Origin: Roseovarius sp.
GTDB lineage: Bacteria; Pseudomonadota; Alphaproteobacteria; Rhodobacterales; Rhodobacteraceae
Length of the DNA: 64,000 nt
Assembly (NCBI GenBank): GCA_048267045.1
Contig: JBLWYG010000002.1
Span: forward strand, 2,977 to 66,976
Direction: 5' to 3'
Shown here: positions 7,973 through 58,968 of the stretch, in pieces
Layout: each line of letters opens with the position of its first letter
How positions within the stretch are numbered: position 1 is the first letter of the stretch
The notes under the pieces: model-generated
Told to the model about the DNA's origin: nothing
The model's input: only the letters and a program-made list of their open reading frames with translations
Databases searched by the model: none
Made by a program: the position numbers and the translations under genes

Positions 7973-7999
7973 GCCAGAAACCCGACAGCCGCGCCTTAG

Positions 8000-8029
8000 C
8001 CCGTCCTGTTTACGATCAGACAGGGCGGG
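8000..8029. terminator. Stem-loop between convergent nhaC and histidine kinase genes
   Basis: 12-bp stem CCCGTCCTGTTT/AGACAGGGCGGG (2 G-U pairs). Confidence 0.6.
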
Positions 8030-8079
8030 TGAATGCAGAAGTGCGGTATCTTTGTATTCTGTGGAGGCGCCGATAGCGA

Positions 8080-9414: not shown

Positions 9415-10070
9415 GCGGCCCCCAGCCGATAGCCCATGCCGCGCACCGTTTCGATCCGGTCATGGCCCAGCTTCTTGCGCAGGCGGCTGACATGCACCTC
9501 GATCGTGTTGCTGTCGATCTCTGCCTCGAAGGAATAGAGCCGCTCCTCCAGCTGCGCCTTGGAAAACAGCTGACCGGGCCGCTGCAGAAGCGCCTCCAGC
9601 AGCACCCATTCGCGCGCGGTAAGCGCCACCGGCCGGCCATCCCGCAGGACCGAGCGTGCGGCCAGATCAATCTCCAGATCCCGAAGCGTGATCAACGGAT
9701 TGGGATTTCCCGAATAGCGCCGCGCCACCGACCCGACCCGCGCCGACAATTCGGCCAGATCGAAGGGCTTGATCATGTAATCGTCCGCGCCCGCATTCAG
9801 CCCCTCGATCCGATCGCTGATCTGGTCCATCGCGGTCAGGATGATCACCGGCGTGACATCGCCGCGCGTGCGCAGCGCGCGCAGGAACGGCTGGCCGCGC
9901 CCGTCGGGCAGCATCAGGTCCAGCAGGATCAGATCATAGTTGGCCACGTCCAGAAATTCGCGCGCCGCATCCAGCCGCCCGGCCCAGTCCACAGAATGGC
10001 CGTCGGCGGCGATCTGGTCATGCACCGCCCCCGCCAGCACCGTATCGTCCTCGATCAGCAATACACGCAT
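9411..10070 (-). CDS. OmpR-family response regulator (QseB-like)
   Basis: LLIEDD, LLDLMLPDG, GADDYMIKPF, IETVRGMGYRL; 4-nt overlap with the kinase. Confidence 0.95.
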   Translation of the reverse strand: MRVLLIEDDTVLAGAVHDQIAADGHSVDWAGRLDAAREFLDVANYDLILLDLMLPDGRGQPFLRALRTRGDVTPVIILTAMDQISDRIEGLNAGADDYMIKPFDLAELSARVGSVARRYSGNPNPLITLRDLEIDLAARSVLRDGRPVALTAREWVLLEALLQRPGQLFSKAQLEERLYSFEAEIDSNTIEVHVSRLRKKLGHDRIETVRGMGYRLGAA

Positions 10071-43901: not shown

Positions 43902-44488
43902 CAGAACCATCATGGCCGCCTTGGCGGCCCAGCCGAATACGCCGAGGCGCGCATCGGCAGGCCGCCGTCGGTTTTTCAACGCGGACCGCGTCGATGGCAG
44001 CCTCGGCATCGCGCGTGGCACACGGATCACTTCACGGAGGCAGCAAATTCGCCTCGCACCAGGAAGGTCATCCGATGCCCGCCTTGCTCTGCTGCGCCGG
44101 CTGGGTGCGAGGTCTTGCCAGTCAGTTTGATTTCCAGGCCCTGTGACGCGCAGATGATTGGCGCAAAACAGAGCCATTGGACCAGCGCGTTCGCCGTTAA
44201 AGCGTTTCTCGAAAAACCTGAATCACAGCTTTTCGCGGACCGCGCGCACCATAATACCAGCGTTGCGCGCGTTTCGCCTTTATCTGATGTCTCAGGTTAA
44301 AGGCGAAACGCTTTAAACACTGAGGCGACGCCGTGCCCTGCCAGACCGGTCATGGCGCGGCTTGGCGAGAAGGACTTTATTGTATTCACGATATTGCGCG
44401 ACATTTCGCGATCTTCGCCGGAAACTTTGGGCCGCTTGTGGATTCCACATCGAAATTCGGTCAGGTCGATCACATCGGAATAGGTCAT
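43902..44488 (-). pseudogene. Decayed M20D amidohydrolase, MITE-interrupted, with internal deletions
   Basis: N-term LTEFRCGIHKRPKVSGED...GLAGHGVASVF|MITE|NGERAGPMALFCA; middle CASQGLEIKLTGKTSH (44105-44152); C-term GVFGWAAKAAMMVL (43902-43943); metal-binding motifs missing. Confidence 0.72.
44198..44315. mobile_element. 118-bp MITE with TA duplication (IS630-type target)
   Basis: 28-nt terminal inverted repeats, 21/28 match, both starting TAAAGCGTTTC; internal 14-bp hairpin 44269-44311; excising it restores the host reading frame. Confidence 0.85.
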
Positions 44489-44571
44489 GGATGATACCTG
44501 CGTCAGGCGCTTGGTTTCCGGCCCAAGACACCACGGCCAAAAGGCGCGCCAGGGCCGCGCCGCATCCACAG

Positions 44572-45255
44572 CTATCGGCAGAAATAAACCGCACCGCCCA
44601 CGCCGACCAGCGTCACCGCGCCGGCCGCGACGACGGCAGGGGCCGACAGAGCGGCGCCGATCGAGGCCCCGGAGGTGCCTAGGGCACCGGAGATGAAGCT
44701 GCCGGAGCCTTTCATGATCAACGCGCCGGAACTATGGTTTATGATCGCCCCCACATCCGGTGACAGCGCCGATTGCGCCGTGTTCATCGCGGCGCGGCCC
44801 GCAATATCCAGACCGGTGCGCGCCAGGGATCGGGCCTCGTCCTTTGTCGTGTTCACGCGCTCGCAGAACGTTCTGGGGTTCTTGCAGATCAGATAGGCAT
44901 TGCGTTCACCCTCGGAAAACCCCGTATAGGTACCTGCGTCCTTGTCGTAGATCAGGCAGAACGGCTTGCGCTCGGCATCGGTCAGACCCGGCGTGAATTC
45001 CCTCAGTGTCAGGTAGGCGGGGCAATCCACTTCGCCCCAACGCCCGAAAATCCGTTCGCGAACCGACGTGTTGCCTTTCATTTCCTTTTTCGGGACGAAC
45101 TGGTCCGGGTCGGTCATGTCCTGCGGCGATACCGTATAGTCAATCTGATGCAGTTCACCGTTCAGCGACGTAGTGCAGCTCGCCGCCCATGCGGGCGCGG
45201 CGACTGCCAATTGAAACAAGGCGAATATCGAGACGCGCAGCAACATCAGAAGCAT
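44572..45255 (-). CDS. Exported hypothetical protein with a Cys-containing domain and a Gly/Ala-rich hydrophobic C-terminus
   Basis: GGGAG RBS; signal peptide ..AAPAWA; five Cys in the soluble part; C-terminal GASIGAALSAPAVVAAGAVTLVGVGGAVY. Confidence 0.72.
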   Translation of the reverse strand: MLLMLLRVSIFALFQLAVAAPAWAASCTTSLNGELHQIDYTVSPQDMTDPDQFVPKKEMKGNTSVRERIFGRWGEVDCPAYLTLREFTPGLTDAERKPFCLIYDKDAGTYTGFSEGERNAYLICKNPRTFCERVNTTKDEARSLARTGLDIAGRAAMNTAQSALSPDVGAIINHSSGALIMKGSGSFISGALGTSGASIGAALSAPAVVAAGAVTLVGVGGAVYFCR

Positions 45256-45343
45256 GCTCCCTGCAAGGCTTTCGGGATGGCCGTGGCCCATGAAGAATGA
45301 TGACCCGCGTCCAGGCATTTGTCCGTTGGGCAATCTGCAGAAG

Positions 45344-46075
45344 TTACAACTCTGCGCCCGCTTTCTTTTCCAGCCATCTCAGATACGCATTCACGCCGAG
45401 CACTGCAATGATCCTCGGCGGTAACTTGCGTGGTAGCGCCGAAGACAGGGCGCGGTCCAGCATGTCGGACCGCGTCCCGGTCGCAAGCTCTGCCGCCAGT
45501 ATCCCCGATAGCGTCCTCCCGCGTCGTTCCCAGCCCCATTCTGACAGCACGCCGAGAAAGGGCCGTCTTCGACTTCCCTGACCACACTGACGGTATTTCT
45601 GCTAATGCAAAGCCTGCCGCCCCACCGATACTGCATTTCAACACCTTTCAGCATCGGAAAGTGCGCGGCAAAAGCGCCGACATGGGCGCGCGCGACGGCA
45701 TCAATGCGCCGCTGGTCCACCTTCATGGAGGGATCAAAGGTAAACCTGTTGTGCATGACGATACGGTGGCCGCCCGCAGATTGAACTCTGCGAACCGTCG
45801 TTCCCATCGGGTCAGCGCGCGCCGCGAGCGCGCCATCGACGCGTAGGTAGCATCAACCGACCCTCTAGAAGGCCAAAGCTGTTCAGGTGACCGTCAACGG
45901 CAAGAACGATGTTCGGCGCAGTCACCTTGCCTTTGGGCATCGTGGCGACCCAGTGCTTGTTCCGGTCAAGGGACGTGATCGGACTGTTCTCGAAAAATTG
46001 CACGCGGTTAGTAGCCAGCCCCGCTGCAACGCCGGGACTGTAGGCTGCGGGCTGGATGATTGCCGTGCAGGCAGT
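45344..46075 (-). pseudogene. 5'-truncated, frameshifted FAD-dependent (DAO/PuuB-like) oxidoreductase
   Basis: Fragments IIQPAAY...FFENSPI...VLAVDGH; FPMLKGVEMQYRWGGRLC...ACCQNG; TLSGILAAELA...LPP in three frames; no N-terminal GxGxxG. Confidence 0.8.
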
Positions 46076-46637
46076 GACTAAGATCGCGGAAATCATAGCA
46101 ATATGCTGATCGATGGATTTCGAGACCCGCTGGCTGTCAGCTTCGGATTTCGGACTGAAAAACGTCTGGTTCAGCCGGGTGTGATCGACAAGCATGCGCT
46201 TGAAGCTGGCAAACAGATAGGGGTTTGCGCCATTTCGCCAATCTGCTCGTGAAAGCGATATTGAGCCATGCCGCCTTCTCGGTCTCACCGGCGAGTGCCG
46301 CCGAAGTAAACCCGGATTGCACGGCTTTCAAATCCGCAATCTGCCGACTGGTTCTGTTTTCCGCAGCCAGCCTTGCGGTCTACGAATAGACCAGCGGCGC
46401 CGTCTGGAAAAACACGCGCATCACGGACAGGTCCATCGAAACCACCTTTGCGCCGCGGTTCTCTTCGAGCCGAACATAACCGTCGCCCGCGAGGCGGTGC
46501 AGGACCTCGCGCAGGGGTGTCTGCAAAATCCCATACTGCTCTGACAGGCTGACCTCATCCAGATCCGACCCCGGCGCGATGTCCTGCGACGGGATCCGCC
46601 TGCGCAGATCGGCCACGCAGTTCGATTTCTTGCTCGT
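46076..46637 (-). pseudogene. GntR (FCD) regulator pseudogene
   Basis: GGGAGG RBS followed by ACG instead of ATG; LDEVSLSEQYG..TPLREVL HTH; in-frame TAG at 46380-46382; frameshift; truncated after DQHIAMISAI. Confidence 0.8.
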
Positions 46638-46657
46638 TACCGCCTCCCGGCTCACAC

Positions 46658-46672
46658 AAGATGTACACACTT
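46658..46672. promoter_or_regulatory. Candidate GntR-type operator upstream of the gntR pseudogene
   Basis: Near-palindrome AAGATGTACACACTT with TGTACA core. Confidence 0.4.
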
Positions 46673-46869
46673 AAAATGCGAATCGATCAATGCGGATGTT
46701 TCCGTGGCGGACACGTTCGCAGCAGGGCGGGATTCCTACGTGTCGGACTCCCCGGTGGGGTACGGGTCTTTGGTTTCAGGCAGCGCCTTCCGCTGCCGCG
46801 CGGCTATCGATCAATCAGGCAGGTCCGCAACCCGCCGGGCGCGCTTCAAAAGAAGGTGGGGAACTCGGG

Positions 46870-47580
46870 CTACCCGCAATAGTGCGACCACAGTGCAGTT
46901 TGCGGTGGCGAGAAACGGTACTCGGGATGCGCTGGCGTCACACGTGGGCCGACGAAGTCGTCATGCACATAGATCAGATGCCCCGTTTCGGTCCTGACCC
47001 AGCCGCGATGGTCGAGGTCCCCGGAAAATCCATGATCCGGAAGTTGGTAGATCGAAGATGGAAATTCCATCCGAAGAGATTGGCAGATGAACTGGTCTTT
47101 TACCGCGGCTGTCAAAAACGGATCGGATCCCGGATCCGGAATAGTCACCAAATGACCGGCTTTGACACTTCGACTGCGAATTTCGAACGTCAGGGGATTG
47201 TCCAATTCGAAAAACCGGGTGGCTCCGCCGTGTCCAAACAGATTTTCTTCATCTTGCCACACATCGCCCGCAGCGAAAGTCAGGCGAAATGTTCCCGGCG
47301 GCACCAGTATCTTGAAGAAAGCGCCGCCATTTATAAAGGCCGCCAAGGCTTCTTTGCCTGTATCATCCTCAATGAGTTTCAGAAAGTAATCCTGTCCTTC
47401 GGGCGTTTTCACCTGAAGCGGAAATACTGCCGGCAGGCCCGTGCGGTTCCACATAAGCCCGGTCGGCCCGGAGGATGATGCCGCATCGTCCGCTCCGGCG
47501 CCCGCAAGTGGGGCCACCGCCCAGAACAGAAGCGCGAGGCCATATTTGGCCAACTTTCCGATACGCGGCAGCTTGGACAT
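46870..47580 (-). CDS. Exported hypothetical protein, 236 aa
   Basis: GAGGA RBS; signal peptide; GLMWNRTGLPAVFPLQVKT, VPPGTFRL beta-rich domain. Confidence 0.7.
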   Translation of the reverse strand: MSKLPRIGKLAKYGLALLFWAVAPLAGAGADDAASSSGPTGLMWNRTGLPAVFPLQVKTPEGQDYFLKLIEDDTGKEALAAFINGGAFFKILVPPGTFRLTFAAGDVWQDEENLFGHGGATRFFELDNPLTFEIRSRSVKAGHLVTIPDPGSDPFLTAAVKDQFICQSLRMEFPSSIYQLPDHGFSGDLDHRGWVRTETGHLIYVHDDFVGPRVTPAHPEYRFSPPQTALWSHYCG

Positions 47581-47819
47581 GTTATCCTCGTACGTTGGTT
47601 TCCCCTTTATATAGTAGTTACGGCAGCTCTTTTCTGCAAAGCTACCGCGCAAGGACGGTTGCCCGCCTGCGCGTGACCGCCCCCCGGGCAAAATACCAGT
47701 GCCATCACCGCTCAGACGGGGGGCATTATGGCCCGCAGGACTGATGATCCCCCGTTCGAAAAGTGAACACGGCGCGCACAGTCCATGATAGACTGACAAA
47801 ATAAGCGATGGAGGGAGAT

Positions 47820-48110: not shown

Positions 48111-48487
48111 CACCCCCGCCCTGCGGGCCACGCCAGACCTGCCAGCTTGCCATTAAGGTCCGCAATGGCGACGCGCATTAGAAAGACTTTCTGGCGAACA
48201 CCATCAGGGGTGGCAGCTACCGCCCCTGCCCCCGCAGAACGGAACAACGTCCGCTCTGCTTTTGATCCCCCCCGAATGCCGCGCTTTGAATTGCGGCGCA
48301 TCAGCGTGAAGCCGCAGGCCAGCGCCGCCGGTGCGCAGGTGCCTGGCTGTTCTTGATGCTCACATCAGTGACGCGGCGGCTTGATCGCAGACAGACATCC
48401 GCACCCTGGTGATTGCCGATCCTGCCCGCCCTGCTTCGGGCCGCGTTGGCGCGCCGCGAAAGGCTCTAACTGTATCCCAGCCGGTTT

Positions 48488-48501
48488 TGTCAAGCTTGAC
48501 A
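48488..48501. promoter_or_regulatory. Perfect 14-bp palindrome containing a consensus -35 (TTGACA), upstream of the APC operon
   Basis: TGTCAAGCTTGACA; about 100 nt upstream of ATG 48604; no clear -10 seen. Confidence 0.55.
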
Positions 48502-48603
48502 TAAAGTCGCACCCTGTGCGTTACTGCCCTTCTAAAGTTTTCACTGCCAATAAACAGCGCCGCCCGAAAGAGCGCTGCCAATCATAACCAACAGGAGCAT
48601 TAA

Positions 48604-48894
48604 ATGCCTGACCTTACCGAACGCATCAAGAAGATGCACAGCCAAGATACCGCAGTTGCGTGGGCTTTTGTCGTCGGCCTCTGGCTGGCAATCATCTTTG
48701 TCGCTCTGGCCACCTGGAATCTCGCTCCCAGTGGCACGGCGCGCATTGTGTTGCTGATCGGCGGCGCGACAATCCTGGTACTCAACACGGCCGCGATCGT
48801 CGCCATGTTGCGCCATTATCGCGAGGATCGCGATTTCATGTACGGGCTGGACATCAAGTTCCTTGATCTTGCCCGGGCTCAGAAAAACCGCTGA
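48604..48894 (+). CDS. Small two-TM membrane protein (APC operon gene 1)
   Basis: CAGGAG RBS; two hydrophobic helices; C-terminal HYREDRDFMYGLDIKFLD. Confidence 0.8.
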   Translation: MPDLTERIKKMHSQDTAVAWAFVVGLWLAIIFVALATWNLAPSGTARIVLLIGGATILVLNTAAIVAMLRHYREDRDFMYGLDIKFLDLARAQKNR

Positions 48895-48905
48895 GAGGAC
48901 CCGAC

Positions 48906-49286
48906 ATGGCTAACTACATCCCCCCCGTTCAAAGCAAGATCGGGCAAATCATTGACGTCATCGTTCTGCTGGTTCTGGCAGTCGGCGCGCTTTACCTGCC
49001 GCTCTTCATGGGTCTGGCAGGCAGCGCACAAACATCGAATGTGCCGGATAACCCCACTTGGGAAACCTTGGGGCAAAACCCCACCATGGTCGAGAAATGG
49101 AACGAGCTTGGCTATGCCACTGCCGCCGACGCGGCCGAGATGATCACCGCACGTTTCGACTATTCCTTCTCGATACTCAACCTTCTGGTGATGATCGTCG
49201 TTGTCGTCGGCTATTACGCCATCGTGCTGCGGTTCTCCAACAAGGAGTACTGCGACGTGATTTCCGAAAAATTCGGCGACAAGTGA
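48906..49286 (+). CDS. Two-TM membrane protein with a soluble loop (APC operon gene 2)
   Basis: GAGG RBS; TM-loop(NPTWETLGQN...RFDY)-TM. Confidence 0.8.
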   Translation: MANYIPPVQSKIGQIIDVIVLLVLAVGALYLPLFMGLAGSAQTSNVPDNPTWETLGQNPTMVEKWNELGYATAADAAEMITARFDYSFSILNLLVMIVVVVGYYAIVLRFSNKEYCDVISEKFGDK

Positions 49287-49299
49287 ACAGGGACTGAAC

Positions 49300-49467
49300 A
49301 TGGATATCTGGAACATCATGGAATACGCCGCCTGGGGGCTTTCAATCGTCTTCGGGCTTTATATCGTCATCGACTGGATCAAGATCGACAGCACCTACAG
49401 CGAAGAGGAACTGATGTCCTCGCGCGAGGGCGAGCTTGAGGCGATGACGGAAGAACACAAACTCTGA
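49300..49467 (+). CDS. Single-TM small protein, 55 aa (APC operon gene 3; not in ORF track)
   Basis: Own translation MDIWNIMEYAAWGLSIVFGLYIVIDWIKIDSTYSEEELMSSREGELEAMTEEHKL; AGGGA RBS; fills the gap exactly. Confidence 0.78.
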   Translation: MDIWNIMEYAAWGLSIVFGLYIVIDWIKIDSTYSEEELMSSREGELEAMTEEHKL

Positions 49468-49481
49468 ACGGGGAGAAGAAG

Positions 49482-50897
49482 ATGTCTGATACGGATATCA
49501 CATCCACCGAAATGGATGGAATGGGCCCCGGTGGGACCAAGATTGGTCTGGCGCGGGTTTTGGGACCGGCGCATATCTGGGGCCTTGGCGTCGGGATCGT
49601 CCTTGTGGGCGAATACATGGGCTGGAACTTTTCCGTCGGCAAGGGCGGCGCCTACGCCGCGCTGCTGGCGTGCTGGTTTGCCGGCATACTCTATTCCTGC
49701 GTCGCCATGATCGACAGCGAGGTGACATCGACCGTCGCCGCCGCGGGCGGTCAATATACGCAGGCCAAACATATCATCGGCCCGCTGATGGCTTTCAACG
49801 TCGGGCTTTATCTGGTTTTCGCCTACACGATGCTGGAGGCTGCAAATGCAATCACCTTCGGATTCCTGATTGATACGGTGGCCGGGATGACCGGGCATGA
49901 GGGTCTCGACGAGAAGCCATTTATCATTTTGTCGATCATGTTTCTGGCGTGGCTTAACTATCGCGGCGTTCTGGCGACGTTGACCTTCAGTCTTGTCATC
50001 ACCGCCTTTGCCTTCTGTGCGATCATCGCGCTGTTTCTGTCGACGGCTGTATTCATGTCCGACAGCCCGCTGCGCCATGTCGAACTGATGACCGATCTGC
50101 CCTATGGGTGGCTGGGCGTTCTGGCGGCGATGCATTTCGGCCTGTGGTATTATCTTGGGATCGAAGGCACCTGCCAGGCGGCCGAAGAGGTCCGCTCGCC
50201 CGCGCGCTCGCTGCCCTTCGGCACGCTGGCCGGGGTGATGACGCTTCTGATCGCGGCAACGCTGACATGGTATGTCTGCGTGGGCCTGATGCCGTGGGAG
50301 TATCTGGGGCAGGCCGGCGTTCCGCTGTTCGATGCGGCACGTATGTCGGGATCAATGACGCTGATGGTGCTCTTGGGTATCGGCACGATGTTTGCTACGC
50401 TGGCCTCGGCCAATGGCTGCATCAACGATGCCAGCCGGGCGTGGTTCGCCATGGGGCGCGATCACTATCTGCCGGATTGGTTCGGTGCCGTGCACCCCAA
50501 GTTCCGCACGCCCTACCGGTCGATCATCTTCCTCGTGCCGATCGCGCTGGTTTTTGCCTTGGGCGCACCTTTGGATCAGGTGATCACCTTCTCGATCCTG
50601 TCGGGCCTCTTGGGATACACCTTCATGCCGCTGAACGTGATCCTCTTCCGTCGCAAGTGGCCGCTGGACACGATCAAGCGCGGGTATGAGCATCCGTTCC
50701 ACCCGGTTCCGGCGATCATTCTGCTCTCGCTTTGCGGGGTCACGTTCTTTGCCGTGTTCCTCGGCTACGGCTCGCAGCTGGTCGCGATGCTGAGTTTCTA
50801 CATCATCGTGTCGCTGTGGTTCCACTTCTGGCGCTACCGCTTCGTGCGCCGTGCCGCGCAGTTCACGATGCCCTGGCCCAGGCCGCGCGGCTACTGA
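49482..50897 (+). CDS. APC-superfamily permease, ethanolamine transporter (Eat)-like
   Basis: LGPAHIWGLGVGIVLVGEYMGW, AAAGGQY, YLGIEG...AEE, HPKFRTPY; about 12 TM. Confidence 0.9.
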   Translation: MSDTDITSTEMDGMGPGGTKIGLARVLGPAHIWGLGVGIVLVGEYMGWNFSVGKGGAYAALLACWFAGILYSCVAMIDSEVTSTVAAAGGQYTQAKHIIGPLMAFNVGLYLVFAYTMLEAANAITFGFLIDTVAGMTGHEGLDEKPFIILSIMFLAWLNYRGVLATLTFSLVITAFAFCAIIALFLSTAVFMSDSPLRHVELMTDLPYGWLGVLAAMHFGLWYYLGIEGTCQAAEEVRSPARSLPFGTLAGVMTLLIAATLTWYVCVGLMPWEYLGQAGVPLFDAARMSGSMTLMVLLGIGTMFATLASANGCINDASRAWFAMGRDHYLPDWFGAVHPKFRTPYRSIIFLVPIALVFALGAPLDQVITFSILSGLLGYTFMPLNVILFRRKWPLDTIKRGYEHPFHPVPAIILLSLCGVTFFAVFLGYGSQLVAMLSFYIIVSLWFHFWRYRFVRRAAQFTMPWPRPRGY

Positions 50898-50910
50898 GAA
50901 ACCCTACAGA

Positions 50911-50944
50911 CCGGCCCGCCCATTCGGCGGGCCGGATACTTTTG
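50911..50944 (+). terminator. Internal terminator-like hairpin after the APC permease
   Basis: Perfect 10-bp stem CCGGCCCGCC/GGCGGGCCGG followed by ATACTTTT. Confidence 0.6.
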
Positions 50945-50957
50945 TACCGGAGGACCG

Positions 50958-51656
50958 ATGGACCGATTCATCACAGGCGCGATCCTGATCGGGGCCGCGA
51001 TATTGTTCGTGCTGCTCTATCGCCACCTGCGCCGTGCCGCAGCCCAGCGTATCACGCAGCGTACCGGATACCTGGATGCCTGCCGCGCGCTGCTGTACAC
51101 GCCCCAAATGGGGCGGGGCGACAGTGGTTTTGCCCGGCTCGGTGGCTGCTATCGCGGGGCTGGGGCCGACATCCAGGTGCTGCCCGACACGCTGACCTTT
51201 CGCAAGCTGCCTGCGCTTTGGGTGCTGGTCACGTTGCCCGGTCCGCTGCCGGTGGGCGCCACGATGAACCTCATGATCCGCCCGACCGGGGTCGAGCCGT
51301 TCTCGCGCTTTCAGACCCTGACGCATCAGTTGGACCGGCCCGACGATTTCCCCGAAGATTGCGCGATCCGCACCGACTGCCGCGCCCATACCCCGCCGGA
51401 GGATCTGGTGCGTGCGCATCTGCACATCTTTGACGATCCGAAGGTCAAGGAACTCGTCCTCTCGCCCAAGGGTGTGCGCATCGTGTTTCTGGCCGAAGAG
51501 GCGCAGCGCAGCCGCTATCTGATCTACCGCGACGCTGAAATGGGCGTCACGCCACTGGCCCCCGACCTGGTGGGGTCCAAGCTGGAGCAGTTGATCGCCC
51601 TGCGCGCGGATCTGCTGGACGTCCAAGACGCCGAGGTGCAAGAGTTGCGCGCATGA
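50958..51656 (+). CDS. N-terminally membrane-anchored hypothetical protein, 232 aa
   Basis: GGAGG RBS; TM at residues 5-22 followed by a basic stretch and a soluble domain. Confidence 0.78.
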   Translation: MDRFITGAILIGAAILFVLLYRHLRRAAAQRITQRTGYLDACRALLYTPQMGRGDSGFARLGGCYRGAGADIQVLPDTLTFRKLPALWVLVTLPGPLPVGATMNLMIRPTGVEPFSRFQTLTHQLDRPDDFPEDCAIRTDCRAHTPPEDLVRAHLHIFDDPKVKELVLSPKGVRIVFLAEEAQRSRYLIYRDAEMGVTPLAPDLVGSKLEQLIALRADLLDVQDAEVQELRA

Positions 51657-51940
51657 GTATCGTATCCCGCCCCCCGCTCAACCCCCGCCTGGTACTGGCC
51701 GCGGCCATCATCCTGCCGGCCTCGGGTCAGGTGCTGAATGGCCAGCCGGTGCGCGGGTTGCTTTTTGCGTTCTTCATCTTGCTGCTCGGCGGCTTCACGC
51801 TTCAGACCGCCGCGCCGGACGTGTCGATCGTGGGCAAGCTGGCAGGCGGCATCTTTGTCTATGCGATGGCAATTTTCGATGCTTACAAGACCGCGCGCAT
51901 CCGCCACGAGGTCTGGACGGCCGCCAGGCCCAAAGGCTGA
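51653..51940 (+). CDS. Small membrane protein, 95 aa
   Basis: ATGA overlap with upstream gene; LPASGQVLNG..RGL..., AIFDAYK (TM2-like pattern). Confidence 0.75.
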   Translation: MSIVSRPPLNPRLVLAAAIILPASGQVLNGQPVRGLLFAFFILLLGGFTLQTAAPDVSIVGKLAGGIFVYAMAIFDAYKTARIRHEVWTAARPKG

Positions 51941-52071
51941 GCCGCAGACCCTTCGGGCGCAACAGCGCCGATCACCTCGCTCGGGCGGTCATCGATAGCG
52001 CTGAGTTGACCTGACATGCCCTTTTTTCAAAATCCGCGTGCCCTGTCGACCAGTATCCGTTGACCCCGTAC

Positions 52072-52833
52072 TCAGGTGACCGGAGTGGGCGCGATATCGT
52101 CCGCACTGCCTTCGCCGCGCCGGACCAGATGACGCAGATAGCGGCGTTCGAACCAGCGGAAGGCCCATGTGATGCACAAAACGATGAGGAAGTAGAGCAC
52201 CGCCGCCGTGATGAACCCCTCATAGGCCAGATAATAGCGCCCATTCAGCCAGCGTCCGACCCCCAGAATATCCTGAAGCGTGATCGTGCTGGCGATGACC
52301 GATCCGTGCAGCATGAAGATGACCTCGTTCGAATAGGCCGGGATCGCGCGGCGGAAGGCCGAGGGCAGAATAATCCGCCGCATGCGGCTGCGATAGGAAT
52401 GACCGGTCGCGATTGCGGCCTCCACCTCGCCGGTTGGCGTGTCGGCGATGGCACCGCGCAGCAGTTCGGTGGTGTAGGCTGCGGTGTTCAGGGTGAACGC
52501 AATCAGCGCGCACCACCAGGCCGACGACAGGACCGGATCCCACAACCAGCTGTTGCGAATGACGTCAAACTGCCCGACGCCGTAGTAGATCAGATAGGTC
52601 TGAACCAGCAACGGCGTGCCACGAAAGACATAGGTATAGACCTGCACCAACGGGTTCAGCACGGCGTGCCCGGACGCGCGGGCGATCGCCATAGGAATGG
52701 CCAGCAGCCCGCCCAAGAGCAGCGCAAGAAACGTAAGGTTCAGCGTGGTCCATACGCCATAAAGGAAGCGGTCAAAATTATCGGCGATCAGCGCAATGTC
52801 GAGCGGGATATAGGACAGCAAGGTTTCCATCAT
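52072..52833 (-). CDS. Basic amino acid/opine ABC permease (HisM/OccM-like)
   Basis: FRGTPLLVQ, NTAAYTTE, GEVEAA, YSNEVIFMLH. Confidence 0.92.
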   Translation of the reverse strand: MMETLLSYIPLDIALIADNFDRFLYGVWTTLNLTFLALLLGGLLAIPMAIARASGHAVLNPLVQVYTYVFRGTPLLVQTYLIYYGVGQFDVIRNSWLWDPVLSSAWWCALIAFTLNTAAYTTELLRGAIADTPTGEVEAAIATGHSYRSRMRRIILPSAFRRAIPAYSNEVIFMLHGSVIASTITLQDILGVGRWLNGRYYLAYEGFITAAVLYFLIVLCITWAFRWFERRYLRHLVRRGEGSADDIAPTPVT

Positions 52834-53522
52834 CCGGCCCTCACCACACCGCGGCTGTAATGCCGTTCCAGCGCACGTAGCGCCACGTCCGAGACGGCCG
52901 TCAACATCAGGTAAATGACAAAGGCCGCCGCCATGAAGGTGAACAACTGCCCGGTGGAGCGGCCCGCGGTAAACGCGTTATAGACCAGATCCTGAAGGCC
53001 GATGACTGAAACCAGTGCGGTCGTCTTCAACTGCACCAGCCAGTTGTTGGTGAACCCCGGCAACGCATAGCGCACCATCTGGGGCCAGATGATGTGTCGA
53101 AATATCAGCGACTTGGGCATGCCACAGCTGATCCCTGCCTCGATCTGGCCGCGCGGGATCGCCATGATTGCGCCGCGGAACGTTTCGGTGAAATAGGCGC
53201 CGAAGATCACGCCGATCGTCCCGGCGCCCGCCGCGAACTGGCTGACTTCGACGTAGCCCCACAGCCCGGTCATCACGCCGATATTGTTCAGCGTCACCTG
53301 ACCGCCGTAAAACACCAGCAGGATCAGCACGAGGTCGGGCACACCGCGTACGACAGTCGTGTATGCTCTGGCCAGACGCTGGGCCAGACGGCTGGAGGAC
53401 AGTTTTGCCCATGCTCCCAGCAACCCGAACACCAGCGCGAAAACAAGCGACGTCAGCGCCAGCTTGATCGTCATGAGCGTGCCGTCAATCAACTGGGATT
53501 GGTATTCCAGGATGAGGTCCAT
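52830..53522 (-). CDS. Basic amino acid/opine ABC permease (HisQ/OccQ-like)
   Basis: RGVPDLV, GAYFTETFRGA, GQIEAG, ALPGFTNNW. Confidence 0.92.
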   Translation of the reverse strand: MDLILEYQSQLIDGTLMTIKLALTSLVFALVFGLLGAWAKLSSSRLAQRLARAYTTVVRGVPDLVLILLVFYGGQVTLNNIGVMTGLWGYVEVSQFAAGAGTIGVIFGAYFTETFRGAIMAIPRGQIEAGISCGMPKSLIFRHIIWPQMVRYALPGFTNNWLVQLKTTALVSVIGLQDLVYNAFTAGRSTGQLFTFMAAAFVIYLMLTAVSDVALRALERHYSRGVVRAG

Positions 53523-53589
53523 CAGGCGTCCTCTGTTTGTGGGTCAGGGCGGCGGGAGATGCCGCCCCGACTGTTCGGTTCAGATCGGA

Positions 53590-54381
53590 TCATTCGCCCG
53601 CGGGGCGTCCGCCATAGATGTCGAACTCGAAATACTTGTCGTTGATTTCGGCGTAGGTGCCATCTTCGCGGATTGCCAGGATCGCGGCGCTCAACTCGTC
53701 GCGCAGTTCTTCCTCGCCCTTGCGCACGGCGATGCCGACGCCTTCGCCGTAGCATTCGACGTCGAGGTGATCACCGCCAAGAAATTCGTAATCCGCCCCT
53801 GCATCCGTATCGAGAAAGCCCTCCTTGGCGATCAGGCTGTCTGACAATTGCACGTCCACACGGCCCAGCGCGAGGTCACGGAACACTTCGTCCTGCGATC
53901 CGTAGAGAATGATTTCCGAGTCAGGGAACATCTTTTCAGCATAGCACTGGTGCGTCGCGCCGCGCTGGACGCCTATGCGTTTTCCAGCCAGCCCTTCCGG
54001 CGTGCCTTCGAAATCGGCATCCTTGGGGGCCACCACGCGGGCGGGTGTCTGATAATACTTGTCCGTGAAATCGATCTGGCGCTTGCGCTCTTCGGTGATC
54101 GACATGGATGCGACGATGGCGTCGAACTTCTGCGCCTTGAGCGCGGGGATCATGCCGTCCCACTCCTGCTGCACCAGTTCGCATTCACGCTGCATTTCGG
54201 CGCAAAGTGCCTTGGCGATGTCAATGTCGAACCCGACAAGCGTGCCATCCGATGATGTGGACGAAAACGGAGGATATGCGCCCTCAACGCCTATGCGAAG
54301 CGTGTCTTGCGCGGCAGCGGGGATCGCAATCGCGGCAAGAGCGGCGGTAAGGGCAGTGGTCAAAACAGTTCTACGGATCAT
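53590..54381 (-). CDS. Lys/Arg/Orn/opine-type ABC substrate-binding protein
   Basis: Signal peptide; EGAYPPF, GFDIDIAKALC..M..EC, WDGMIPAL, SMSITEER. Confidence 0.92.
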   Translation of the reverse strand: MIRRTVLTTALTAALAAIAIPAAAQDTLRIGVEGAYPPFSSTSSDGTLVGFDIDIAKALCAEMQRECELVQQEWDGMIPALKAQKFDAIVASMSITEERKRQIDFTDKYYQTPARVVAPKDADFEGTPEGLAGKRIGVQRGATHQCYAEKMFPDSEIILYGSQDEVFRDLALGRVDVQLSDSLIAKEGFLDTDAGADYEFLGGDHLDVECYGEGVGIAVRKGEEELRDELSAAILAIREDGTYAEINDKYFEFDIYGGRPAGE

Positions 54382-54409
54382 TTCTTGGGTCTCTCCTGTT
54401 GGTGGTTCG

Positions 54410-55180
54410 TTAATTCATGCGCGATAGAAACGCCTGAAATTCGGTGGTTTGCGGGTTGGAAAACAGCTGCGTGGGCGGGCCTTCTTCGCAAACCTCGCCC
54501 TTGTGCAGAAAAACGGTCTTGGTCGACACGTCACGGGCAAAGCCCATTTCATGCGTGACGACCAGCATCGTGCGACCCTCATCGGCCAGATCACGCATCA
54601 CGCCCAGCACCTCGCCCACAAGTTCGGGATCGAGCGCGGACGTAGGTTCGTCAAACAGCATCACATCGGGGTCCATCGCCAGTGCCCGCGCAATGGCGAC
54701 GCGCTGCTGCTGACCACCCGACAGATGTGCCGGGTAGTAATCCGCGCGATCCGACAGACCGACCTTTGCCAAGAGGGCCTTGGCCTTTTCGCGCGCTTCG
54801 GCCTTGGGCGTTTTCTGCACGTAAAGCGGGCCTTCCAGCACATTTTCCATCACGGTCATGTGTGACCAGAGGTTAAAGCCCTGAAACACCATTGCAAGGC
54901 GCGCGCGCATCCTTTCGACCTGCCGGATGTCCTCGGGGACCGTGTCGCCATGACGGTTGGTTGTCATGCGCATCTTCTCCCCGGCCAGCCAGATGTCGCC
55001 GGAATTCGGGGTCTCTAGCAGGTTGATGCAGCGCAGAAATGTGCTTTTGCCGGATCCGGACGCGCCGAGGATGGCGATGACTTCGCCTTTCTGCGCTTCC
55101 ATTGACACGCCCTTGATGACTTCGTGGCTGCCGAAGCTTTTGTGCAGATCCTCGATCTTCAATGCTGCGGGATCGCTCAT
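54410..55180 (-). CDS. ABC ATP-binding protein (HisP/OccP-like)
   Basis: GASGSGKS, FQGFNLWSHM, LSGGQQQR, FDEPTSALDPE. Confidence 0.94.
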   Translation of the reverse strand: MSDPAALKIEDLHKSFGSHEVIKGVSMEAQKGEVIAILGASGSGKSTFLRCINLLETPNSGDIWLAGEKMRMTTNRHGDTVPEDIRQVERMRARLAMVFQGFNLWSHMTVMENVLEGPLYVQKTPKAEAREKAKALLAKVGLSDRADYYPAHLSGGQQQRVAIARALAMDPDVMLFDEPTSALDPELVGEVLGVMRDLADEGRTMLVVTHEMGFARDVSTKTVFLHKGEVCEEGPPTQLFSNPQTTEFQAFLSRMN

Positions 55181-56568
55181 GCTGTCTCCTCCTGATCGTC
55201 GGTCAACGCCGCCAACTCGCCCAGCGTGATCGGCTTGATGGGCGAACGGGCCCTCGGCGGGGCGATCATGCCCATGCGCGATGTCTCGCCCGCGCCCAGA
55301 ATTCCACGCACGCTTGCGTCACACATGCGACCTTGGCACGGCCCCATGCCGACGCGCAACGATGTTTTGATCTGACGGTGTCCTTGCGCGCCCTCGCCCA
55401 TGCCCTGGCGGATTGCACCGGCCGTCACCTCCTCGCAGCGGCAGATGATCGTCTGGTCCGCGGGCGACAGAATTTCGGCCGGGGGCGGATAAGCGGCGTC
55501 CAGAAAAGGGCGGATGGCGCGGGCGCGAAACAGCACCGCGCGGGCGGTTGCCGCGCGCTGGTCGCGGGCATCGGCGCTGATGCGCCCCGCCGCCCGCAAG
55601 ATATCAAGAGCGGCCAGTTCCCCGGAAGCGGCGGCTGCCTCGGCGCCGCCAATGCCCGCCCCGTCGCCCGCGACATAGAGGTCGGCGCGATCAGTGGCGC
55701 CCCAAGTGTCGTGAACCGGCTGAAAGGCAACCTGCGCCGCATTCCATTCGTGCCTGATACCTGCCGCACGGCTCATGTGGGTGGACGGGATCACGCCCTG
55801 ATGGGTCAACAGCAGGGCGCAGTCCAGCGTCTCGCGCTTGCCGCCGGAGCGGAATGAAAAGCGGATCGTGCCGCTTGCGTCGGTCGTCGCCCCGAAGCCC
55901 GAGGCGGCGGTGTAGCGCCGCACTCCCGCCTTGCGGATCTTCGCGACGAGGCCAAGCCCCTTGAGCAGCGTTCGCGCTGCAAAAGCCGCCTTCGGTAGAT
56001 AGCGCAGAGCGCCCAGCATCATGCGAGGTGTCTGGGTCTCGACCAGCGCCTTCGGCGGGCATCCGGCATCAATCATCTGCGCCGCGACCAGATACAGCAG
56101 TGGGCCGGAGCCCGCCAGCACCGCGTCACGCGGCAACATGCCGGCGGTCTTCATCAATATCTGCGCGGCCCCTGCCGTCATCACACCGGGCAGCGTCCAT
56201 CCCGGAAACGGCACGGGCCGCTCCTGCGCGCCGCCTGCCAGCAGGACATGCGGCGCTGACGTGCCGCGGCTGACCCCATTGCGGGACCACATGACGCGCG
56301 GTCCGGCATCCAGACGCCAGACCGTCGCACCAAATTGCGTCGTCACGCCAGGATGGTCCAGCGCATCGACCAGCCGCGATCCCGCCGCATAGTCCCTGCC
56401 CAGCCAGCCCCGCGTGTTCCGGTTCTGGCCGACATTGCGATAGATCTGACCGCCGGGCTGTGCCTGCTCGTCCAGCACCAGCGTTTGCAGACCGCCATGG
56501 GCCGCCACCCGCGCCGCAGACATGCCGGCAGGGCCGGCGCCGATGATGATTAGATCAAATTCAGGCAT
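55177..56568 (-). CDS. Opine oxidase/dehydrogenase A-type subunit (OoxA/OdhA family, BFD-like C-terminus)
   Basis: IIGAGPAG, PGGQIYR, ERPVPFPGWTLPGVM, ICRCEEVT, GMGPCQGRMC. Confidence 0.88.
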   Translation of the reverse strand: MPEFDLIIIGAGPAGMSAARVAAHGGLQTLVLDEQAQPGGQIYRNVGQNRNTRGWLGRDYAAGSRLVDALDHPGVTTQFGATVWRLDAGPRVMWSRNGVSRGTSAPHVLLAGGAQERPVPFPGWTLPGVMTAGAAQILMKTAGMLPRDAVLAGSGPLLYLVAAQMIDAGCPPKALVETQTPRMMLGALRYLPKAAFAARTLLKGLGLVAKIRKAGVRRYTAASGFGATTDASGTIRFSFRSGGKRETLDCALLLTHQGVIPSTHMSRAAGIRHEWNAAQVAFQPVHDTWGATDRADLYVAGDGAGIGGAEAAAASGELAALDILRAAGRISADARDQRAATARAVLFRARAIRPFLDAAYPPPAEILSPADQTIICRCEEVTAGAIRQGMGEGAQGHRQIKTSLRVGMGPCQGRMCDASVRGILGAGETSRMGMIAPPRARSPIKPITLGELAALTDDQEETA

Positions 56569-56878
56569 CCGTGCCACTGCCCAGTCTTCGCAGCCCTGTC
56601 TGGCGACTGACCACCATTCCGCTGCGCACCTGCGTCATGCAGGCCTGGACGTTTGGAACGCCGTCAATCTCTACCAGACAATCGAAACAGACGCCCATCA
56701 TGCAAAAGGCCGTCCGCCCGCTCCCCTTGACCGTTTGCCGGGTATATGCGCCGGAGTGGGCCAGAAGCGCCGCCGCAACAGATGTTCCCTCGGGCGCCGT
56801 GACTGTTTCGCCCTCATAGCGGAACTGCACGGTTGCGCCCGTCTCAGGCGGCGCTCGAAAGCGCGAAGCGATTTTCAT
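56561..56878 (-). CDS. [2Fe-2S] small subunit (OdhC/HcnA-like)
   Basis: FCMMGVCFDCLVEIDG..VQAC; GGAGG RBS. Confidence 0.9.
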   Translation of the reverse strand: MKIASRFRAPPETGATVQFRYEGETVTAPEGTSVAAALLAHSGAYTRQTVKGSGRTAFCMMGVCFDCLVEIDGVPNVQACMTQVRSGMVVSRQTGLRRLGSGTDA

Positions 56879-57968
56879 CGAATGCCTCCAGGTCAGGTGC
56901 CGCAGATGTGCCATCTATCCAGTCCGCTACGACAGAGGCATGCAGCGATGCAAGCGTGATACCGCTGTGGCAGGTGACGAGATACGCGCCGGGATGCCGG
57001 GCAGAGCGCGCATAGACCGGATACCCGTCGGGCGACAGAACACGCAGTGCGCCCCAGGCCCGCACGACGCGCACAGTCGCCAAAGCCGGATAGACGGCGA
57101 CCGCGTGACGTGCCAGTTTCGTCATCATGTCCAGCGTTTCGCCGTCGTCCAGACCTACATCGGCCTTGGTCCCGCCGATCTGCACGCCGCCCTCGTCCAC
57201 CTGCCTGATCGTCCCAGACAGAAACGGCAACCGGTCGCGCAATTTCTCGGTAATAAGCACCTCGCCGCGCTGAGGGCGAATCCGTGTCGCAAAGCCCAGA
57301 TCAGGCGCCAACGATGTCGCGCCCAACCCGGCGCAAAGAATGACCTTGTCTGCACTGACTGTTTCGCCGCCGACCATCGACAGATCGAAGCCGCCCCCTG
57401 TGACCGGCGCGATACGCGCAACCTGCGCGCCCATGGTCACGCGCCCACCAGAGGCCGTCACGGCGCGTCGCACCGCGCGCAGAAATCGCAACGGATTCAC
57501 CTGCCCGTCCTGCGGCGAAAAGCTGGCCCCGACGACATGCGGCCCGATGCCCGGGATCTGCGCCCGCAGATCATCGCCGCTCAGCATCTCATGACTGATC
57601 CGGTTGCCCAGATGCCGCTGCTGCTGCGTCAACATTCCGGCAAATTCGTCCATCTCCGCCGCGTCCGTGAAAAACTCGAAACCGCCGGGCTGATCCAGTG
57701 CAACATCAATGCCGGACAAATCGGCCAACTTGCGGGCAAACTCCGGCCATGCGGCCTGCGCGTCATGTGTCCATCTGGCGTAAGGCGCGAAATTCCAGCC
57801 CTTGCCCTGCCCCCAGACCAGCCCAAAATTGCCTTGGGATGCGCGCGCATCACTGTCCGCGCCGTCCAGCACATGCACCCTGCGACCCGCCAGAAGCAGC
57901 CCCAGTGCCACCGACAGCCCCACAACGCCGCCGCCGACAATGATGATTTCAGGGTCCGTGCGATCCAT
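56844..57968 (-). CDS. Opine oxidase/dehydrogenase B-type FAD subunit (DAO family)
   Basis: VGGGVVG, ASQGNFGLVW, DGQVNP, WGALRVLSPDG.P, CHSGITL. Confidence 0.88.
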   Translation of the reverse strand: MDRTDPEIIIVGGGVVGLSVALGLLLAGRRVHVLDGADSDARASQGNFGLVWGQGKGWNFAPYARWTHDAQAAWPEFARKLADLSGIDVALDQPGGFEFFTDAAEMDEFAGMLTQQQRHLGNRISHEMLSGDDLRAQIPGIGPHVVGASFSPQDGQVNPLRFLRAVRRAVTASGGRVTMGAQVARIAPVTGGGFDLSMVGGETVSADKVILCAGLGATSLAPDLGFATRIRPQRGEVLITEKLRDRLPFLSGTIRQVDEGGVQIGGTKADVGLDDGETLDMMTKLARHAVAVYPALATVRVVRAWGALRVLSPDGYPVYARSARHPGAYLVTCHSGITLASLHASVVADWIDGTSAAPDLEAFDENRFALSSAA

Positions 57969-58034
57969 GCGATTCCTCCCCGGGCAATGTCGCATCTTTC
58001 CTTTTATATGAATAATCGTGATATTTGTTAAACT

Positions 58035-58051
58035 CATTCCTGTTGGATATG
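58035..58051. promoter_or_regulatory. Candidate LysR box between lysR and the oxidase operon
   Basis: CAT-N11-ATG dyad (T-N11-A) in an AT-rich intergenic region. Confidence 0.4.
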
Positions 58052-58059
58052 TATTTGCC

Positions 58060-58968
58060 ATGATTGCGCGCCTGACCCACCGCCAGATCGAGGCCTTTCG
58101 GGCCGTGATCGAAACCGGCAAGATCACCGCGGCAGCCGGGGTGCTGGGCACCACGCAACCCTCCATCAGCAAGTTGATTGCCGATCTGGAACAGGCAGCC
58201 GGATTCGATCTGTTCGAGCGGCGCGGCCGCCTGGTTGCGCCGACGCCCGAGGCGCTGGCCCTCTATGAGGAGGTCGAGCGATCCTTCGTCGGCATGTCCG
58301 AGATTTCGCGCGTCATCGAGGATATCCGGGATTTCCGCAAGGGCAGCCTGCTGATCGCCGGAATGCCGGCGCTGGCGCTGAAACTGCTGCCCGACGTCAT
58401 CGCGCAATTCATCGCCGAAGAACCCGGCATCACCGTGTCCCTGCGCACCCGCAGTTCGCAGGCCGTTTTGCAGCATCTCAGCTCGCAGCAATTCGATCTT
58501 GGCTTTGCGGCGCTGGAAAAGGACCATCCGGCAGTCATTCGCAAGCCGATCTTTACGGCGCCCATGCTCGCGGTTCTGCCGATTGGCCATGAGCTTGAAT
58601 GCAAGGATGTTCTGGAGCCTGCCGACCTTGACCAGCAACCGTTCATCGCGCTCGGGGCCGAAATCGGGACGCGATCCGAGACTGACCTGTTCCTGTCGGC
58701 GGCTGGCGCACGCCCCCGGATTGTGGCCGAAGCGCAGCTGTCCGCGTCCATTTGCGAGCTGGTGGCGGCCGGTGCCGGTGTCTCCATCGTCGAGCCGGTC
58801 ACAGCCACGCATTTCGCGAATGCAGGGCGTATCACTGTGCGTCCGCTCGTGCCGGAACAGCCGTTCCGCTATGATTTACTGTTGCCGGCCCTGCGAAACC
58901 CATCCCGCGTCGCGCGCCGCTTTCTGGAGCTCGTCGAGGACCGCTTTGCAATGGTCCTCGTGACGTGA
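58060..58968 (+). CDS. LysR-family regulator (OccR/NocR/LysR-like)
   Basis: LTHRQIEAF, TQPSISKLIADLE, FERRGR, PTPEA. Confidence 0.93.
   Translation: MIARLTHRQIEAFRAVIETGKITAAAGVLGTTQPSISKLIADLEQAAGFDLFERRGRLVAPTPEALALYEEVERSFVGMSEISRVIEDIRDFRKGSLLIAGMPALALKLLPDVIAQFIAEEPGITVSLRTRSSQAVLQHLSSQQFDLGFAALEKDHPAVIRKPIFTAPMLAVLPIGHELECKDVLEPADLDQQPFIALGAEIGTRSETDLFLSAAGARPRIVAEAQLSASICELVAAGAGVSIVEPVTATHFANAGRITVRPLVPEQPFRYDLLLPALRNPSRVARRFLELVEDRFAMVLVT

Follow-up and report, generated by a model that had tools for sequence, protein, structure and literature searches.

Among the described transport systems, those closest to the locus reported here are APC-type carriers: the ethanolamine permease Eat, the amino-acid carrier GkApcT of Geobacillus kaustophilus, and TmoP, a permease for trimethylamine N-oxide (TMAO). 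We compared them with a six-gene cassette found in a 64,000-nucleotide (nt) stretch of DNA from Roseovarius sp., hereafter called the window, where the cassette including its promoter occupies positions 48,487–51,942 and encodes an APC permease (g4) together with five small proteins (g1, g2, g3, g5 and g6; Table 1). Eat takes a small primary amine lacking a carboxylate as its substrate, and resembles g4 in its LeuT-type APC architecture, in a signature of the first transmembrane helix (TM1) and in a motif of TM6; however, eat adjoins eutBC or an aldehyde dehydrogenase gene and has no small partners, whereas g4 is found with methylamine genes and five partners. GkApcT, by contrast, is an amino-acid carrier with a carboxylate-binding G-T-G motif in TM1, where g4 has V-G-E. 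Crystals of GkApcT (5OQT, 6F34) are reported to contain MgtS, a small membrane protein of E. coli, bound to the carrier, which gives a precedent for a single-helix small protein on an APC carrier, although MgtS is neither dedicated to nor co-encoded with that carrier, while the partners in the cassette are conserved and number five. The concept of small membrane proteins encoded alongside a secondary transporter is familiar from DUF485/YjcH with ActP and from the small subunits of the TRAP and TTT transporters. No bacterial APC carrier described so far is known to us to have five dedicated partners, or to need dedicated partner subunits at all.

In the 1980s, the methylotrophs Pseudomonas/Aminobacter MA, Hyphomicrobium and Arthrobacter were found to transport methylamine inducibly and specifically, and to our knowledge the genes responsible for it were never named. 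Methylammonium is usually held to enter through AmtB/Mep ammonium channels, and depictions of some methylamine gene clusters include amtB (PMC8292978, PMC5520151); these proteins are unrelated to g4 in fold and family, yet they would perform the same service by admitting NH4+ or CH3NH3+. In a 2026 study of how Aminobacter NyZ550 uses methylamine, the model shows ‘MA transporters’ as hypothetical (PMC13199381). The papers searched on methylamine transporters and permeases, and on the N-methylglutamate pathway together with a permease, gave no description of the cassette genes. Our analysis shows that the cassette keeps a fixed, compact arrangement in Alpha- and Betaproteobacteria and that it is, judging from the sequences, a new multi-component variant of the Eat-type APC carrier. 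We regard it as the best candidate for a bacterial methylamine uptake system: with moderate confidence, its most likely role is the uptake of methylated amines, most probably monomethylamine (methylammonium), feeding the GmaS/N-methylglutamate pathway.

The unity of the cassette is evident from its conservation. Relatives of g4 numbered 585 among species-representative genomes, and synteny was analyzed by tblastn for the best 80 of these 585 plus one congener, giving 81 loci. The six genes keep the same order and orientation across these loci wherever the contig permits, with g1, g2 and g3 each syntenic in 80 of the 81 and g6 in 75. Five of the six loci without g5 and/or g6 end at a contig edge; the sixth, L064, is the one exception, with about 2.2 kb beyond the permease in which neither gene was found. 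The complete set is also present in Aminobacter aminovorans pAA01, Sinorhizobium meliloti Ak57 and the betaproteobacterium Paraburkholderia caribensis, whose permease is 67.6% identical. The spacing is tight throughout, with median gaps across loci of 2, 9, 5, 52 and −4 nt (the last, between g5 and g6, over 75 loci). When the DNA was compared with that of relatives, the similarity started at 48,486–48,487, at the edge of a palindrome in the promoter, and stopped at about 51,924–51,942, at the stop codon of g6, with unrelated sequence on both flanks. The possibility that the cassette is a mobile element was considered and rejected, as no flanking direct or inverted repeats beyond chance were found.

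We then asked how often the genes occur together in a sample of one genome per genus, covering 400 genera of the family to which the source genome belongs; a class-level draw, also of 400 genomes, gave 3 matches, too sparse for statistics, and the family-level draw was therefore used. The g4-type permease was found in 19 of the 400 genomes and g5 in 18, the permease of the odd one sitting at a contig end, so that g4 and g5 co-occur in all 18 genomes that can be assessed, the one further locus being cut by the contig end. One genome (G706; C111:8904–9677 and C143:698–1149) holds a degraded cassette, in which a permease fragment carries two TAA stops and g5 is split, with gmaS intact elsewhere. 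The small genes thus co-occur with the permease, all six being syntenic in every complete locus, and this outcome favors a functional unit. The interpretation in the first-pass annotation of this DNA, a multi-subunit complex for amine transport or sensing, is supported in part: conservation speaks strongly for a multi-component amine transport module.

The metabolic context was obtained by clustering all open reading frames (ORFs) within 8 kb on either side of the 81 loci and annotating the recurrent clusters. Upstream and divergent from the cassette, genes for a class-II amidotransferase, a GXGXG protein, an FMN-dependent glutamate-synthase-like protein and a type III glutamine-synthetase-like ligase recur, that is, mgsABC-gmaS, and this divergent operon is both the commonest and the closest neighbor. 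Downstream, the recurrent genes encode an XRE/cupin regulator and a four-subunit sarcosine-oxidase-like enzyme, mgdABCD, while tmm (trimethylamine monooxygenase) lies within 8 kb in about 23 loci. At least one of mgsABC-gmaS, the XRE regulator and mgdABCD stands beside the cassette in 42 of the 50 loci with full 8-kb flanks. Among individual replicons, Sinorhizobium Ak57 has the cassette between tdm-tmm-dmmDABC-purU-xre and gmaS-mgsCBA-glxA-mgdABCD, and on plasmid pAMI6 of Paracoccus aminophilus it is divergent from mgsA; the pAMI6 genome paper covers the mgsABC-gmaS operon and is silent on the cassette genes. The Aminobacter island that includes ppc and glyA also holds the cassette, at a distance of about 11 kb from mgsABC-gmaS-mgdABCD. 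In locus L097 (site 1655–2302), on plasmid pMET1 of Aminobacter NyZ550, the cassette lies about 6 kb downstream of ppc-glyA and of a response-regulator gene that is probably the plasmid-borne secR2 of PMC13199381, so that the NyZ550 cassette sits inside an island for the serine cycle and methylamine use. RNA-seq of NyZ550 on methylamine, dimethylamine and trimethylamine exists (PMC13199381).

The association also holds at the level of whole genomes, with gmaS present in 17 of 18 cassette genomes compared with 131 of 400 (33%) overall (odds ratio 40, Fisher p = 3.5e-8); the sole cassette genome lacking gmaS is an assembly of 88% completeness, and it does carry tmm. The tmm gene itself occurs in 20–21 of 24 cassette genomes, but two complete genomes have the cassette and gmaS without tmm, and therefore the common denominator is monomethylamine catabolism, not trimethylamine oxidation. 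In the source genome, mgsABC-gmaS-xre-tmm lies on contig C13 and mgdABCD on contig C22, which is why the first-pass annotation, confined to the window, saw no enzyme nearby. Its statement that no enzyme or regulator is adjacent is right for the window, while its conclusion that the cassette cannot be matched to any described system no longer applies, since the comparative context places the cassette with genes for methylamine use and the N-methylglutamate pathway.

The permease belongs to the APC superfamily, matching Pfam PF13520 with 105.6 bits (cut-off 27) over residues 36–429 and PF00324 with 103.5 bits. Its orthologues are 67–98% identical across two proteobacterial classes, and the next relatives, annotated eat, go down to 28%; because of this sharp drop, g4 forms a sharply bounded subfamily. 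The best named family is the ethanolamine permease TIGR00908, with 175.6 bits, short of its cut-off of 381.75. For a direct comparison we took two annotated eat products, one encoded beside eutBC (Moraxella) and the other beside an aldehyde dehydrogenase gene (Paracoccus), neither with small partner genes beside it. These share 26–28% identity with g4. In TM1, g4 reads G43-E44-Y45-M46-G47-W48, which fits the Eat signature G-[ED]-[YF]-x-G-W, the two Eat sequences having SGDFAGW and SGEYFGW at the same site, and the TM6 motif EG...AAEE is common to all three. The earlier label ‘Eat-like’ is thus borne out by the TM1 and family signature but not by overall similarity, given the low identity and a score far below the TIGR00908 cut-off. 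The nearest solved structure is GkApcT (6F34/5OQT, E = 1e-19), whose TM1 reads G-T-G-I-F where g4 has V-G-E-Y-M. From this alignment we infer that the acidic residue E44 would take the place of the carboxylate missing from the substrate and pair with its ammonium group, and such a pairing would fit a small amine as substrate. No eut genes were found in the window or in the recurrent neighbor clusters of the 81 loci.

TmoP, the APC-type TMAO permease of Methylocella silvestris (Zhu et al. 2014, as cited in PMC4543880 and PMC5520151), is similar to g4 in that both are APC-superfamily permeases encoded in a methylated-amine gene island. The locus tags of Methylocella assign dmmD to Msil_3605 and dmmABC to Msil_3607–3609. 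Msil_3606, which we take to be tmoP, lies between Msil_3605 and Msil_3607 and would therefore be a single gene with no room for partners. On pAMI6 (L093, 154–1959, minus strand) there is a second APC permease of 600 amino acids (aa), which adjoins tmm2. Its sequence has no significant similarity to that of g4, and it probably represents the TmoP-type permease for TMAO drawn in the literature; since it is present besides the cassette, islands for methylated amines can hold two different APC carriers.

The window contains the promoter and six intact genes in the order g1 to g6, all on the plus strand (Table 1), exactly as the first-pass annotation had described them, with gaps of 11, 13, 14 and 60 nt and a final 4-nt overlap of g5 and g6 (ATGA), and each of the six genes is preceded by a purine-rich ribosome-binding site. 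Ratios of nonsynonymous to synonymous substitution rates (dN/dS), computed against the five closest relatives, were 0.03–0.06 for g4 and 0.05–0.34 for the five other genes (g1, 0.05–0.16; g2, 0.07–0.13; g3, 0.07–0.22; g6, 0.05–0.20), and because of these values, which include the 55-aa g3, we conclude that all six are genuine coding genes under purifying selection. The first-pass annotation had noted that the ORF track missed g3.

Table 1 Features of the cassette, numbered by position in the 64,000-nt Roseovarius sp. window
Feature	Position	Strand	Description
Palindrome TGTCAAGCTTGACA	48488–48501	+	right half (48496–48501) is TTGACA, the conserved −35 box
Inferred −10 region and leader	48519–48603	+	CGTTAC 17 nt past the −35 box; from the conserved promoter alignment
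g1	48604–48894	+	96 aa, two membrane helices (hydropathy)
g2	48906–49286	+	126 aa, two membrane helices (hydropathy)
g3	49300–49467	+	55 aa, one membrane helix (hydropathy)
g4	49482–50897	+	471-aa APC permease; Pfam AA_permease_2, 3.7e-30
G+C-rich hairpin	50911–50935	+	CCGGCCCGCC-CATTC-GGCGGGCCGG, with T-rich tail ATACTTTTGT
g5	50958–51656	+	232 aa, one membrane helix, an N-terminal anchor (hydropathy)
g6	51653–51940	+	95 aa, 2–3 membrane helices (hydropathy)

The five partners share little with annotated proteins. Public records label them all ‘hypothetical protein’, and none of g1, g2, g3, g5 and g6 gave a Pfam or NCBIfam match below E = 0.01; attempts to name the small proteins through Pfam, NCBIfam and PDB sequence profiles matched nothing. 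Nor was there a profile match to DUF485/YjcH-type or other named small transporter subunits among the small cassette proteins, or to the Ammonium_transp profile for any of the six proteins in the Pfam and NCBIfam scans, and no kinase, helix-turn-helix (HTH), PAS, GGDEF or other signalling domain was recognized in the six. The cassette thus defines five small protein families without annotation, and these have conserved features of their own. A cytoplasmic tail of g1 carries the conserved AMLRHYxED..F.YGLD.K.LD, in g2 the conserved motifs PTWE.LGQN and ITARFDYSF lie in an acidic loop about 55 aa long, which is probably periplasmic, the acidic tail SSREGE.EA is conserved in g3, and g6 has the conserved motifs LPGAGQV...RG and GG.FVYA....DAY..AR.

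For g5, an AlphaFold2 model built with 55 aligned orthologues reached a mean predicted local distance difference test score (pLDDT) of 93.4 and a predicted TM-score (pTM) of 0.88, and the core domain alone 90.1 and 0.87. In the model, a long N-terminal helix (2–36), which contains the anchor, is followed by a beta-rich domain and by another long helix at the C-terminus (202–231), and because Arg22, Arg25 and Arg26 follow the anchor, the positive-inside rule would place the domain in the cytoplasm. The only recurring match in a Foldseek search against the PDB was chain 4 of 7TM3, a ribosome-multipass-translocon assembly (probability 1.0), with a TM-score of 0.34 when the full model was used and of 0.45 with the core domain; sequence searches of Pfam and the PDB gave no match to g5. 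A relationship to TtfA, an MmpL3 accessory factor, was considered and dropped, since the match to 6T84 was weak (E = 1.7e-3, TM-score 0.29–0.36) and was not reproduced with the core domain, and although UniRef names one relative of g5 ‘DUF3137’, scanning 55 members of the family with Pfam did not bear this out. A g5 profile run against 1.84 billion representative proteins matched 468 clusters at 50% identity. Among the best 150 of these 468 clusters, nearly all are about 220–240 aa long and match in a single stretch, so that no larger multidomain fusion was seen among these 150. By the predicted model, g5 is a small dedicated family with no close fold relative in the PDB.

The promoter of the cassette is conserved in part. 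The perfect palindrome that had been noticed upstream is indeed present, and TGTCAAGCTTGACA occurs as a single copy in the 2.95-Mb genome. As a conserved feature of the system, however, it did not hold up, only its TTGACA half, the −35 box, being conserved: the full palindrome is confined to the Roseovarius-type relatives L013, L015 and L017, its left half is lineage-specific, while 74 of 84 loci have TTGACA between −150 and −80 relative to the start of g1, and 63 of the 84 have CTTGACAG. The conserved promoter consensus gttttnCTTGACAGAATGTCGCAGG-N-TTTCCT surrounds TTGACA. Judged by the promoter alignment, transcription would start near 48531 and give a leader of about 72–75 nt; the leader contains a local hairpin, CAGCGC...GCGCTG, and the ribosome-binding site AGGAG. 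A structured RNA leader or riboswitch was considered and rejected, RNAalifold having found no consensus pairs in 37 leaders and no Rfam family having matched. The palindrome was likewise rejected as the operator of a regulon, because no copy lies near the methylamine genes on C13 and C22 even with 2 mismatches allowed and because it is missing from most orthologous promoters. In the promoters of L035–L091, at about −90 to −70 from g1 (for example CTTTCCCTGTGGAAAAC in L051), most carry an inverted repeat, TTTCC-N4-6-GGAAA, and this repeat, placed over the presumed −10 box and start, is a candidate operator; the window promoter lacks it and has the lineage-specific TGTCAAGCTTGACA over the −35 box instead.

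The hairpin in the 60-nt gap between g4 and g5, also pointed out in the first-pass annotation, has a stem of 10 G-C pairs with a folding energy of −29.8 kcal/mol (z = −3.3). Of 77 loci, 65 retain the stem GGCCCGCC/GGCGGGCC; in the remaining 12 the g4-g5 gap is at most 18 nt. We read the hairpin that separates g4 from g5 as a putative terminator or attenuator. River and lake metatranscriptomes yielded contigs from strains about 94% identical to L080; these contigs begin 67–79 nt upstream of g1 and span g1–g4 as one piece (7088–9445 and 7607–9749), the divergent mgsA being covered too, and their depth is about zero over distal g5 and g6. RNA matches to the window itself were long contigs of an 89%-identical relative that may be DNA; these contigs, of 7–9 kb in runs X35–X37, match window positions 48487–51924 only, and both flanks differ, so that one more genome shows the module with sharply defined edges. 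We provisionally conclude that g1–g4 make up the main transcript and that g5 and g6 are expressed at a lower level by read-through.

If the cassette imports methylammonium, g4 would be the translocator, with a LeuT-type APC fold, carrying methylammonium inward while E44 binds the ammonium group. The products of g1, g2 and g3 would be co-translated small membrane subunits of the carrier, those of g1 and g3 with their conserved tails in the cytoplasm and that of g2 with its acidic loop in the periplasm, whereas g5 and g6, made at a lower level behind the hairpin, may act together at the cytoplasmic face as a module for assembly or gating. A more specific proposal, which we offer only tentatively and consider possible rather than probable, is that all six proteins form an obligate hetero-oligomeric secondary transporter in which g1–g3 are integral and g5–g6 act as a new-fold chaperone or gate at the cytoplasmic face (its one weak structural resemblance being to 7TM3 chain 4, a subunit of the eukaryotic multipass-translocon assembly), matching the entry of methylammonium to the capacity of GmaS. 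Such a hetero-oligomer, if true, would be the first multi-subunit bacterial APC carrier described.

Several observations weigh against the assignment to methylamine uptake. In the window and in the closest relatives L013, L014, L016 and L017 the cassette is unlinked to the pathway genes, whereas L015, an equally close relative, has mgdA and mgdB inside the 8-kb flank. Only about 13% of the gmaS-bearing genera of the family have the cassette, which must therefore be an optional addition and dispensable for methylamine use. No regulatory motif common to the cassette and the C13 and C22 genes was found, and the metatranscriptome data consist of assembled contigs of relatives, which may include DNA. 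Finally, the presence of tmm in most cassette genomes keeps dimethylamine and trimethylamine among the possible substrates.

This last point leads to the idea that the cassette imports another small amine, such as dimethylamine, trimethylamine, TMAO, ethanolamine or another C1–C3 amine, and that its linkage to the N-methylglutamate pathway merely comes from a shared island. The frequency and proximity of tmm would agree with this, as would the position of the Sinorhizobium cassette between dmmDABC and gmaS and the TM1 signature in common with ethanolamine permeases. We nevertheless consider it unlikely, because the divergent mgsABC-gmaS is the most frequent and closest neighbor, two complete genomes combine the cassette and gmaS without tmm, no eutBC lies beside any examined cassette, unlike the true eat genes, and dedicated TMAO transporters, TmoXWV and TmoP, are already known (PMC4543880, PMC5520151). 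One could also imagine an outward valve that exports excess ammonium or methylammonium when methylated amines serve as the carbon source, since growth on methylamine frees surplus ammonium (compare the cross-feeding in PMC7574528). Many carriers of the cassette are in fact methylotrophs that use methylamines as carbon (Paracoccus aminophilus, P. aminovorans, Aminobacter and Gemmobacter). Eat-type carriers are importers, though, and those beside eutBC or aldehyde dehydrogenase genes stand in uptake contexts, and the cassette is also present in the small marine genome studied here, so that export seems improbable to us.

We give slightly less credence still to a role as a sensor (‘transceptor’) that detects external methylamines and signals to the regulators of the pathway without bulk flux. 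The first-pass annotation had suggested sensing as one option, g5 has a predicted cytoplasmic domain of unknown function, and the inducing signal of the methylamine genes of Aminobacter has been ascribed to ‘an unidentified sensor system’ (PMC13199381). Yet the six proteins contain no recognizable signalling domain, most genomes with gmaS lack the cassette and regulate the pathway all the same, and the permease evolves under a constraint (dN/dS as given above) expected of a working carrier. The least credible explanation, to our minds a very remote one, is that the five small genes are independent of the permease and are merely co-inherited neighbors with, for example, a function in membrane stress or assembly. 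The location of g5 and g6 behind a terminator-like hairpin would fit it, but the gene order is invariant in two proteobacterial classes while the flanks change completely, the conserved gaps suit translational coupling, g4 and g5 co-occur perfectly and are both broken in the degraded G706 copy, and the block of similarity runs from the promoter to the g6 stop. Uptake of methylated amines, most probably monomethylamine, thus remains the function that we favor for the cassette.

Beyond the cassette, its neighbors in the window are a 100-aa ORF without known function, a truncated GntR fragment and a convergent ABC transporter with an oxidase. About 3.2 kb of extra DNA (44558–47753), relative to the congeneric L013, separates the conserved TRAP-amidase-dehydrogenase genes of the window from the 100-aa ORF. 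This extra DNA holds two ORFs that belong to no family (252 and 308 aa) and the truncated fragment, of GntR/FadR-type HTH (46380–46670, 95 aa), and just upstream of it lies a small hairpin element (44197–44316). On the other side, convergent with the cassette (52072–58172, minus strand), there are genes for an ABC transporter of the lysine/arginine/ornithine/opine type, then for a soxA-like oxidoreductase of 465 aa and for a 441-aa protein similar to ThiO and D-amino-acid oxidase. These genes form an opine-oxidase-like set, which lies beside the cassette in no relative.

Methylated amines are climate-relevant nitrogen and carbon sources for abundant marine and soil bacteria, and knowledge of their uptake step would supply a functional marker gene as well as access to affinity and flux. 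If the proposed function and composition are true, the cassette would also challenge the view that bacterial APC carriers do without dedicated subunits.

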